DNA of 40,605 nt from a bacterium. GTDB taxonomy: Bacteria > Omnitrophota > Gorgyraeia > Gygaellales > UBA12090. Where the stretch lies: positions 1 to 40,605 of the forward strand of contig SCPY01000069.1 of NCBI GenBank assembly GCA_004299495.1, read 5' to 3'. How positions within the stretch are numbered: the stretch's first letter is position 1; each line of letters starts with the position of its first letter. Under the pieces are notes generated by a model. That model did not search any database, was not told where the DNA came from, and saw nothing but the letters and a program-made list of their open reading frames with translations. Below, piece after piece: positions 26,628 through 29,600 of the stretch. A program made the position numbers and the translations under genes.

Positions 26628-29600
26628 AGCAGGAAACAGCGGAAAAAAAGACGCACCAATACGACGCAACCACCATTCAGGTGCTTGAGGGCATAGAGGC
26701 GGTCCGCCGCAGGCCGGCAATGTATATCGGCGATACCTATACCCGGGGCCTGCACCACCTGGTGTATGAAGTGGTGGATAATTCCGTGGACGAGGCATTG
26801 GCCGGTTATTGCAACAAAATAGATGTCGCGGTGCGCCCTGATAGCAGCGTGAGCGTCACCGATAACGGCCGGGGCATCCCGGTAGATATTCATAAGGCTG
26901 AGAAAAAGCCCGCGGTTGAGGTAGTCTTGACTACGCTTCATGCCGGAGGCAAGTTTGACCACGATGCCTATAAGGTGTCCGGGGGCCTGCACGGAGTCGG
27001 GGTAAGCGTGGTTAACGCCCTTTCGGAATGGCTTGAGGTGGAGGTCAGGCGCGACGGCCAGGTGCACCACCAGAGATATGAAAAGGGAAAAACCGCCTCC
27101 CGCCTCACCGTAATCGGCAAAAGCAAGACTACCGGCACCAGGGTGACCTTTAAGGCGGACAAGGAGATTTTTAAATCCATAGATTATTCATACGACACCT
27201 TATCCCAGCGCCTGAGAGAGCTTGCCTTTTTAAACAAAGGCTTAGAGATAACCCTGGGCGACGAAAGGTCCGACAAGCGCGCGGAATTTAAGTTTTCCGG
27301 CGGCATAGTTTCCTTTGTAGAGTACCTGAATAAAAGCAAAAACCCCCTTCATCACAAAGTGGTTTATTTTGATAAAGAAAAAGAGGGCATACAGCTTGAG
27401 GTCGCCTTGCAGTATAACGACGGCTACTCCGAAAACCTCTTTTCTTTTGCCAATAACATCAACACCGTGGAAGGCGGTACGCACCTTTCCGGGTTTAAGT
27501 CCGCGCTTACGCGGGCCATCAACCAATACGCCAAAAACAAGAATCTTTTAAAAGACGGCATCGCCATAAGCGGCGACGACGTGCGCGAAGGGCTGACCGC
27601 GGTCATTTCGGTAAAAATCCCAAACCCCCAGTATGAGGGCCAGACCAAAACCAAGCTGGGTAATTCCGAAGTTGAGGGGCTTACCGCGTCGTGCGTTTTT
27701 GACTGCCTCTCCGGATTTTTTGAGGAAAACCCAAGCGTCGCCAATAAAATTGTAGATAAGGCGATTTTGTCCAGCCGCGCCAGGGAGGCCGCGCGAAAGG
27801 CGCGGGAATTGACCCGCAGAAAGGGCGCGCTGGAGTCGGGGGGCCTGCCGGGAAAATTAGCGGATTGCTCGGAGCGCGACGCGGCATTGTGTGAGCTCTA
27901 CATTGTGGAAGGCGACTCTGCCGGTGGATGTTTTTCCGGCGATACCAAGGTTGCTCTATCTGATGGGAGGAGCGTTTCTTTCAAGGAATTAGTAGAGGAG
28001 GATGCTCAAGGCAAGACAAATTACTGCTACACCGTTAAGGATGGCGGCGAGATCGCGATAGAAAAGATTGTTAATCCCAGGATAACCAAGAAAAACGCGG
28101 AGGTTATAAAAGTAATATTAGATAACGATGAGACGATTATCTGCACGCCGGGCCACAGGTTTATGCTGCGCGACGGCTCTTACATTGAAGCCAAAGACTT
28201 AAAACCGGCCATGAGCCTTATGCCCTTAAACAGGAAATTATCCAAAATAGAAGGCAGGGTTACCATAGATGGTTACGAGATGGTTTTAAATCCCGCAGCC
28301 CACAGGTGGGTTTTTACCCATTTATTAGCGGACAGTTTTAACTTAGCGCAAAGTAAATATAGCCAGGCGCAAGGCCCGCATAAGCATCACAAAGATTTTA
28401 ATAAGCTCAATAACAGCCCTGATAATATAATCCGCATGGCCAAAGAGGAGCACTTAAGAATTCATAAGGAGCAGGCAGGAGTAACTCTTCACCGTAAAGA
28501 CACCATAGAAAAATGCAATAAGATGAAAAGGTCGGCCGCCTACAGGAAAAAAATATCTTCGGTTATAAAAGAAAAATATAGCGGTATGCTAAGCGCCAAA
28601 GCCAAAAAGCAATGGCAAGACGCGGAGTATAAAAAATATATAGGGGAAAAGTACTTAGAATTTTATTCCCGCAACGAGGCTTACAGAAAACAAAACGCGC
28701 AAATTCTAGCAAAGGCCAAAAAAAGATATTGGGCAGAAGAGGCAAGCAGGAAAAAACAAGCCGACAGGGTCCGGAAATATTTTTATGAACATCCGGAAAG
28801 GAGGGCTTGGCTTAAAGAAGCCGCCAAAAAGCAGTGGGGCGATGCAGGGCTTTTAGAATGGCGCAGGCAGAAGACAAAAGAGCAATGGACGGACGAATTC
28901 CGCAGGAAAAGAAAGCAGGCGTATAGCCTTGTATATCTAAACTCAAGCTTAGAATTTGCCCGCCGGATTTATGATAAATACCGGGACATTGGTTTGTATG
29001 ACCGGGAAAGAAGAAAGCAATTCCCGAGAAATCCTAATGTGGTTAAACTCACAACCTTGCGGGAAAGTTTTTTTTCCGGCAGCCAGGATAAACTGCAGGA
29101 GGCGGTAGAAAATTTTAACCACAAGGTTCGGCGCATAGAAAAGGTTGCCGAGAGGATAGATGTCTACGATGCGGAAGTGCCTAATACCCACAACTTTGCC
29201 CTTTCCTGTGGCATATTCGTTCACAACAGCGCCAAGCAGGGCCGGGACAGAAGGTTTCAGGCCATATTGCCGATTAAGGGAAAGATCTTGAATGTGGAGA
29301 AGTCGCGCTTAGACAAGATTTTATCCAACGATGAAATCCGCACCATCATTACCGCTTTGGGTACGGGTATAGGCGAAGAGTTTGATGCGGGTAAGCTGCG
29401 TTACCACAAGATAGTGCTGATGGCAGATGCCGACGTGGACGGATCCCACATCCGCACCCTTTTGTTAACCTTTCTCTACCGCCAGATGCCCAAATTAGTG
29501 GAGGATGGCTATGTGTATATTGCCCAGCCACCGCTTTATAAAATTAAAAGGGGAAGCCGCGAAGAGTATATTCAGACTGAGGCGCAGATGGACGGTTTTA

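Follow-up and report, generated by a model that had tools for sequence, protein, structure and literature searches.

A GyrB Toprim-site intein with a predicted HNH homing endonuclease and a Trp-repeat arm in an Omnitrophota bacterium

The intein of Synechocystis PCC 6803 DNA gyrase subunit B, the Ssp GyrB intein, is a standard tool in protein engineering. A 1997 report by Dalgaard et al. (NAR 25:4626) is said to have presented it as the first intein with an endonuclease of the HNH class. The Ssp GyrB intein splices experimentally, and in its S11 split form the C-intein is GVFVHN, followed by Ser (PMC2794532). Homing endonucleases such as I-TevI, I-HmuI and I-BmoI carry NUMOD3, a helix that binds the minor groove of the DNA (PMC3664794). 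In this work we analysed a contig of 40,605 nucleotides (SCPY01000069.1, positions 1 to 40,605 of the forward strand, assembly GCA_004299495.1; GTDB lineage Bacteria, Omnitrophota, Gorgyraeia, Gygaellales, UBA12090), hereafter called the window, whose gyrB gene is interrupted in frame at positions 27929-29227. A preliminary description of the same DNA had read this insertion as an intein with an HNH nuclease and an unusual basic Trp-repeat module. We consider it highly probable that the insertion is an ordinary, probably active full-length member of the HNH intein family found at the GyrB Toprim site, the Ssp GyrB type.

The gyrB gene is a single uninterrupted open reading frame (ORF) encoding a precursor of 1249 amino acids (aa), and it was recognised above the cut-offs of two NCBIfam GyrB models (Table 1). 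The Pfam domains HATPase_c, DNA_gyraseB, Toprim and DNA_gyraseB_C were all found in the regions flanking the insert. The insert itself is a stop-free translation of 433 aa that ends in SCGIFVHN and is immediately followed by SAKQGRDR. It separates an N-extein of 435 aa from a C-extein of 381 aa, which together make 816 aa, and the junction seen in the translation lies exactly inside the Toprim motif EGDSAGG/S (here and below a slash marks the insertion point). The position, the length, the placement in this motif and the 816-aa size of GyrB without the insert had all been given in the preliminary description, and ORF, translation and junctions showed them to be correct to the base. The GC content of the intein is 43.8%, compared with 53.6% for the N-extein (26624-27928) and 49.9% for the window, which fits a foreign origin, a Lys-rich composition, or both. 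For annotation, the gene is to be named as an intein-containing DNA gyrase subunit B rather than as a fused or aberrant gene, and the mature enzyme would be a GyrB of normal size, 816 aa.

Three curated profiles identified the splicing (Hint) domain. The Pfam family Intein_splicing (PF14890) scored 68.3 bits against a cut-off of 35.8, TIGR01445 scored 45.7 bits (cut-off 24.5) over intein residues 1-79, and TIGR01443 scored 25.2 bits (cut-off 15.6) over residues 411-433. Block B reads TPGHRF at residues 73-78, and the codon of Ser(+1) begins at 29228. Conservation was checked in two alignments, one of 84 close relatives and one of 22 sequences spread across bacterial and archaeal phyla. Cys1, Thr73, His76, Asp411-Val-Tyr-Asp414, His421, His432 and Asn433 were invariant in both, and the stretches H421-N-F and F430-V-H-N433 were also invariant in the 22-sequence alignment. 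By its sequence this is the standard residue set of class-1 splicing, with Ser+1 as the predicted second nucleophile. The canonical Cys1, block B, terminal His-Asn and +1 Ser that had been read from the letters are thus upheld by profiles above their cut-offs and by formal alignment, in which the splicing blocks are present and invariant across the 84 and 22 sequences.

The fold predictions agree with the profiles. An AlphaFold2 (AF2) model of the whole intein, built with 83 homologues, had a mean predicted local distance difference test score (pLDDT) of 88. In a Foldseek search with the whole intein, the beta-rich parts (residues 1-104 and 396-433) matched the solved mini-inteins Ssp DnaB, Npu DnaE, Ssp DnaE, Mtu RecA, NrdJ-1 and Pho RadA with E-values from 2e-6 to 1e-4. 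This search was dominated by the Hint domain and was uninformative on the insert within it, and residues 105-395 were therefore modelled separately. A sequence search against the chains of the Protein Data Bank (PDB) gave only weak intein matches (DnaE intein, E 0.0085). Matches of the basic repeat region to MHC class I and sigma-factor chains (E 0.14-0.9) were dismissed as compositional.

One could suppose instead that the insertion is no intein at all, but a lineage-specific GyrB domain that is kept in the mature protein. GyrB proteins do carry lineage-specific insertions, and the C-terminal half of this one has a further insertion of about 170 aa. Such a domain would, however, have to exceed the cut-offs of the intein models, to possess a Hint fold, and to have exact Cys1, His-Asn and Ser+1 boundaries splitting an otherwise invariant motif, and its cyanobacterial orthologue is in experimental use as an intein that splices (PMC2794532). 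We give this explanation a negligible probability.

A separate observation concerns the NCBIfam model NF052663 (RtcB_rel_intein2), which covers intein-containing proteins of the RtcB family. Its match spans the whole gyrB intein and corresponds to the intein portion of the model. A relationship of the host protein to RtcB was rejected, the score being 140.9 bits against a cut-off of 1050; what is related is the intein within the model. The match suggests that genes of the RtcB family, too, harbour a close relative of this intein, whose insert may also be related.

The nuclease proposed for the inner part of the intein was of the HNH type instead of the LAGLIDADG type, and this assignment agrees with our results. 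No LAGLIDADG family of Pfam, PF14528 included, matched the intein at E≤1; some GyrB homologues with several inteins do bear PF14528, in a different intein. The HNH motif lies in residues 151-179. Among the PHROG models, phrog_7545, annotated 'HNH endonuclease', matched residues 110-199 with an E-value of 3.2e-9, and weaker HNH matches were obtained with phrog_15471 (E 8.7e-5) and phrog_21964 (E 1.3e-3). Across phyla and domains N161, N166, H175 and H179 do not vary; at H153 and H154 at least 90% of the sequences across phyla agree, and H153 is invariant in the close relatives. In the AF2 model the core comprises strands 151-154 and 167-170 and helix 172-183. It is preceded by a hairpin (strands 117-121 and 126-129) and a helix (130-140), a region in which Y116, W127, H131 and N138 are invariant in the 22-sequence alignment.

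The separate model of residues 105-395 had a pLDDT of 91.4 and consisted of the hairpin and helix, the beta-beta-alpha unit that bears the HNH motif and a run of helices. With this model as query, Foldseek ranked I-HmuI (1u3e) first among PDB structures, and the HNH domains of type I-F Cascade and I-PpoI came next; the E-values of all these matches were weak. Among the predicted viral structures of the BFVD, first place went to a protein of Bacillus phage SP-15 with a Hint domain (E 3.5e-5, 297 columns), and the next 49 named matches were nearly all phage HNH or homing endonucleases, with a probability of about 1.0. An HNH nuclease fold for the inner domain is supported by these sequence and model matches, and its activity is predicted.

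The nuclease core is followed by the basic, Trp-containing segments, which the preliminary description had taken for tandem DNA-binding helices. It had noted segments of the types AKAKKQW, AKAKKRYW and EAAKKQW, which fall in intein residues 222-331. We searched this region with a hidden Markov model (HMM) of 17 columns, trained only on the repeats of unrelated free-standing GIY-YIG proteins. It placed unit starts at intein residues 202, 214, 231, 249, 270, 288, 305 and 321, with the array consensus D-P-E-Y-R-x-K-x-S-E-x-x-K-K-x-W-x. The intein modules scored 9.4 bits on average and shuffled sequences -4.9 bits. The median score of the real modules was higher than that of every one of 570 shuffles, and the repeat is statistically real, far beyond chance. 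One helix is predicted per unit, and AF2 built consecutive helices with pLDDT 90-97. W229, W268, W303 and W311 are invariant across phyla. W320 is invariant in the close relatives, and across phyla it is kept in at least 90% of the sequences. The reading as tandem helices therefore stands, with eight units that are also found in the DNA-binding arms of homing endonucleases. Further helices, at residues 322-351, 354-362, 374-381 and 386-394, lead back to the Hint domain.

The relatives of the arm were looked for in several ways. Pfam and NCBIfam held nothing meaningful for the repeat region at E≤10, and neither a sequence nor a fold counterpart was found in the PDB. An HMMER search with residues 185-395 against 1.84 billion representative proteins yielded 96 clusters, of which the larger ones that were scanned were GyrB inteins or fragments of them. 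The exceptions were free-standing GIY-YIG proteins (P0201, P0208 and P0216, E 2e-5 to 5e-4), a protein with the repeat and no nuclease-domain match (P0206), and P0131, a free-standing HNH protein that has this module and lacks a Hint domain. The GIY-YIG proteins show a cleaner 17-residue unit, W-x-D-P-E-x-R-x-K-x-S-E-x-x-K-K-x. A search with this clean W-array found 86 small proteins, mostly unannotated, in which the recognised nucleases were GIY-YIG, LEM-3-type GIY-YIG and HNH_3. Matches of W-repeat proteins to GerD, STI1-DP and NHase_alpha were rejected as sub-threshold mis-hits. Precomputed Pfam labels of GerD (PF17898) and STI1/HOP DP (PF17830) are attached to many homing-endonuclease-like W-repeat proteins (P0220, P0237-P0258 and others). 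Such labels reflect sub-threshold, compositional resemblance to the W-x-D-P-E-F/Y-R helices, and automated annotation could be misled by them.

Several of these proteins connect the W-type unit with NUMOD3. In P0301, P0308 and P0279 canonical Pfam NUMOD3 units come first and W-type units continue without a break, and within one GIY-YIG family close homologues carry either NUMOD3 or W-type arrays at the same position. A comparison of three-unit W and NUMOD3 profiles with hhalign aligned them in the predicted register (P 5e-5, probability 67%). By sequence and by analogy we read the module as a NUMOD3-like, predicted DNA-binding arm that Pfam does not catalogue, and leave its formal membership open. 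A bolder idea is that the W-ended unit, W-x-D-P-E-[YF]-R-x-K-x-S-E-x-x-K-K, is a distinct sibling of NUMOD3 and builds a modular array for reading DNA, in which the length and identity of the homing site depend on how many units there are and on their sequence. We hold this to be rather doubtful. If it were true, the alleles of the gyrB site (8 units) and of the gyrA site (about 11 units, see below), which share their Hint and HNH parts, would be a natural pair for decoding how units read DNA, and the W-unit array might be re-targetable.

To place the intein among its homologues, we used a word-indexed search restricted to the intein region, with a threshold of E≤1e-3. It returned more than 4000 proteins, and the best 120 were GyrB proteins with 100% coverage of the intein and 53-71% identity, with source names including Omnitrophota, Margulisbacteria, Patescibacteria, Syntrophales and Nanoarchaeota. 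The junctions EGDSAGG/C...HN/S were present in 114 of these 120, with inteins of 431-435 aa (one of 379), and the same junction was found in the 22 aligned loci from bacteria and archaea. The window copy ends in GIFVHN, and the family consensus is GVFVHN followed by Ser (68 of the 114).

In a scan of one genome per species, at least 509 species carried a relative of the intein. Hosts among the bacteria include Omnitrophota, many CPR lineages, Margulisbacteria, Planctomycetes, Gammaproteobacteria, Acidobacteria, Chloroflexi, Deinococcota, Campylobacterota and Cyanobacteria, the last with Pseudanabaena, Waterburya, Pleurocapsa, Tolypothrix, Nodosilinea, Microseira and Scytonematopsis. Hosts among the archaea include Woesearchaeota, Nanoarchaeota, Micrarchaeota, Methanosarcinales, Halobacteriales, Methanomassiliicoccales and Thermoplasmatota. 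Cyanobacterial copies (Pseudanabaena, Waterburya and an uncultured cyanobacterium) aligned end to end with the window intein at 48-51% identity and include alleles of 435 aa, so that the expected kinship with known GyrB inteins, cyanobacterial ones included, was found. The Synechocystis PCC 6803 locus was absent from the lists of three genome scans, in which many other cyanobacteria appeared.

The mean pairwise identity of the 114 homologues was 0.64 for the N-terminal part of Hint, 0.59 for HNH, 0.53 for the repeats, 0.47 for the tail and 0.75 for the C-terminal part of Hint; the conservation of the endonuclease is thus almost as high as that of the splicing domain. The HNH domain and the repeat module occur, at a conserved length, in practically every full-length member of the family, and the word 'unusual' in the preliminary description, with the novelty that it implied, does not hold. 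At NCBI the name 'intein-containing DNA gyrase subunit B' is already in use for proteins of this kind. Neither the type of intein nor its site, its HNH nuclease or its splicing is new, and the window contains one more copy. Searches of the open literature returned no paper linking 'GyrB intein' with 'HNH', and the N-terminal peptide CFSGDT gave no result.

Among 41 related genomes the element is patchy. An intein match was found in six of them, and in at least 22 the gyrB site was uninterrupted, with 72-82% nucleotide identity to the joined flanks. A full-length allele in a genome of the same family (G004) is 63% identical in the intein and 85% in the exteins; for one of the same order (G023) the values are 56% versus 72%. 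Another genome of the order (G010:C9, locus L170) has a mini-intein of 176 aa at the identical GyrB site, in which the Hint halves are kept (65% and 64% identity) and a short linker replaces the HNH and repeat domain. The identity of the window intein is 61% to copies labelled Gammaproteobacteria, 57% to Margulisbacteria and 56% to Methanosarcinales, about the same as to copies within its own order. Taken together, the empty sites, the full-length alleles, the allele with a deletion and the similarity across domains make up the textbook pattern of a horizontally cycling homing element.

Two related genomes (G002:C76, locus L171, ORF from 1765, 1262 aa; also G020:C27) carry a sister intein in GyrA. 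Its site is GQGNFG/SVDGD, just before the catalytic Tyr, and on the same contigs the gyrB Toprim site is uninterrupted.

Homing endonucleases commonly decay in inteins that have become fixed, and the window copy might be a fixed and decaying, or tolerated, intein that still splices while its HNH and repeat regions are a relic. The mini-intein of G010 has already lost the domain, and the window copy has some residues outside the consensus, namely DAEY for DPEY in one unit, Gly75 in place of Asp (TPDH) and SCG for ASG near the C-terminus. Against a relic, however, all the HNH residues conserved across phyla and domains and the conserved Trp residues are intact, the length of 433 aa falls within the 431-435 aa of the family and the frame is open. 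Moreover, the element is patchy and not fixed in the relatives, a case in which selection for homing persists. We judge an inactive endonuclease to be unlikely, and whether the endonuclease of this copy is still active is the main residual uncertainty.

The host might also have put the intein or its basic arm to use, as a conditional splicing switch that ties the maturation of GyrB to DNA or stress status or as an additional DNA-binding element of the precursor. The insertion does interrupt the catalytic Toprim motif, and the enzyme is essential; moreover, the length and sequence of the endonuclease domain are unusually conserved across very distant hosts. Frequent horizontal homing explains this conservation well enough, however. 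Most close relatives are intein-free with an uninterrupted site, which excludes a host need; mini-intein derivatives exist, and the same repeat arm occurs in free-standing selfish nucleases. A role for the host is without positive support, and we regard it as very unlikely.

For an active HNH intein the following course may be proposed. The gyrB gene would be translated into the 1249-aa precursor, in which the Hint domain (residues 1-104 and 396-433) would perform class-1 splicing, beginning with an acyl shift at Cys1 and transfer to Ser+1, after which Asn433 would cyclise and an O-to-N shift would complete the reaction. Splicing would restore EGDSAGGSAKQGR in the 816-aa GyrB and free the 433-aa intein. 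Residues 105-395 would act as the homing endonuclease, with a putative HNH active site formed by His153/His154, Asn166, His175 and His179. Behind this site, eight NUMOD3-like single-helix units, each about 17 residues long, would form an extended arm that binds DNA, and a short helical tail would come last. In a gyrB allele that lacks the intein, the endonuclease would bind over a long stretch around the highly conserved Toprim-coding sequence and nick or cut the DNA there, and repair from the intein-bearing copy would spread the element. The dependence of gyrase on splicing, mentioned in the preliminary description, is a generic expectation, valid for any intein in an essential protein.

Several points weigh against this interpretation. 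The match to Pfam HNH_3 (residues 153-176) is sub-threshold, at 13.7-17.4 bits against a gathering cut-off of 24.8, and the I-HmuI fold match is weak (E 0.65, 89 columns, 19% identity). The predicted template modelling score was low (0.43-0.54 for the models of the intein and of residues 105-395), which leaves the arrangement of the helices undefined. Pfam NUMOD3 (PF07460) gave no match to intein residues 185-395 even at E≤10, a model that also gives the W-type GIY-YIG protein P0208 only 7 bits (E 7.8), and the 17-column W-unit HMM was not significant on NUMOD3 arrays relative to shuffles. Part of the link to the named Ssp GyrB intein comes from the published C-terminal hexapeptide. Finally, splicing, cleavage by the nuclease, the target site and the DNA-binding role of the repeats are all inferred. 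The anatomy of the insert, its homology, the conserved catalytic and splicing residues and the patchy, homing-type distribution are observed directly. On balance, membership in the Ssp GyrB type family with a probably active endonuclease remains the explanation in which we place high confidence.

Table 1. Coordinates of gyrB and of the parts of its intein in the window (residue numbers are those of the intein unless stated otherwise)
Feature	Coordinates	Strand	Basis
gyrB ORF, 1249-aa GyrB precursor	26624..30373	+	ORF list; PRK14939 1083.8 bits and TIGR01059 gyrB 1004.7 bits, both above cut-off
Complete class-1 intein, Cys1-Asn433, between Gly435 of the N-extein and Ser(+1), EGDSAGG/SAKQGR	27929..29227	+	Profiles; boundaries of homologues
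Hint N-terminal half, residues 1-104, with Cys1 and block B T73-P-G-H76	27929..28240	+	TIGR01445; invariant residues; AF2 beta strands; Foldseek
Pre-HNH beta-hairpin and helix, residues 105-149	28241..28375	+	AF2; invariant residues; PHROG 7545
Predicted HNH (beta-beta-alpha-metal) nuclease core, residues 150-184	28376..28480	+	PHROG models; conserved residues; fold matches
Eight tandem helical units, each about 17 residues long, at residues 202-338 ('Trp-repeat module')	28532..28942	+	Repeat HMM; AF2; conserved Trp
C-terminal helical segment from the endonuclease back to Hint, residues 339-395	28943..29113	+	AF2 helices; least conserved part
Hint C-terminal part, residues 396-433, blocks F and G, His432-Asn433	29114..29227	+	TIGR01443; invariant residues

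The gyrB gene lies between dnaN (25236..26324) and gyrA (30386..32818), and the latter is uninterrupted and has no intein. The window contains two identical copies, and no more, of the 29-bp sequence CAGGCCCGCCTGGCTTCAGTCGGGCAGGC. One copy (30014-30042) is in frame and coding, inside the C-terminal insertion of gyrB, and the other (19415-19443) lies within an unrelated upstream gene. The genome contains a second intein of about 360 aa (G000:C187, locus L001 1087..3123), which occupies residues 139-498 of a 678-aa protein. Its host is a thiamine-pyrophosphate enzyme (Pfam TPP_enzyme_C), which by eye looks like the beta subunit of a 2-oxoacid:ferredoxin oxidoreductase. LAGLIDADG-like motifs (LGIFIGDGW and FIEGLMLADGY) were seen in it by eye, and its nuclease class differs from that of the gyrB intein.

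The window adds an Omnitrophota-like groundwater bacterium to the hosts of an intein family whose members have passed from one domain to the other, between Bacteria and Archaea, by targeting one of the most conserved coding sequences known. Its only less-charted element is the Trp-marked arm, which is a feature of the whole family and also of free-standing GIY-YIG and HNH nucleases and has neither a Pfam model nor a solved structure. A structure of the W-repeat arm with DNA would show how such selfish nucleases read long targets.

In comparison with known systems, the arm resembles the NUMOD3 arrays of I-TevI, I-BmoI and free-standing GIY-YIG or HNH proteins in its period of about 17 residues, its core E-x-R-x-K-x-S-E-x-x-K and its position C-terminal to the nuclease. 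It differs from them in that the start G-K-x-H-S-E-E of NUMOD3 is W-x-D-P-E in the intein units, which are also more degenerate than the W-type units of free-standing proteins. I-HmuI of the Bacillus phage SPO1 (PDB 1U3E) shows the same plan, in which an extended DNA-binding arm with a NUMOD3 helix comes after the HNH core (PMC3664794), but it is intron-encoded and free-standing, and its arm consists of one NUMOD3 helix and a helix-turn-helix instead of eight tandem W-type units. The Hint fold and the homing life style are shared with the LAGLIDADG inteins PI-SceI and PI-PfuI and with the second intein of this genome, whereas the nuclease of the gyrB intein is of a different class. The GyrA inteins of the related genomes have 44% identity in Hint (residues 1-269) and the same HNH motif; they differ in their gyrA site and in a longer, cleaner W-x-D-P-E-Y-R array of about 11 units. 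The closest system is the Ssp GyrB type, with which the window intein has in common the GyrB host, the site EGDSAGG/S, Cys1 and Ser+1, the C-terminus G[VI]FVHN and the size (433 aa here, 435 aa in cyanobacterial alleles). It stands apart from that type by its occurrence in another, Omnitrophota-like phylum, by an identity of about 50% and by a few substitutions of near-consensus residues, and the architecture is the same.

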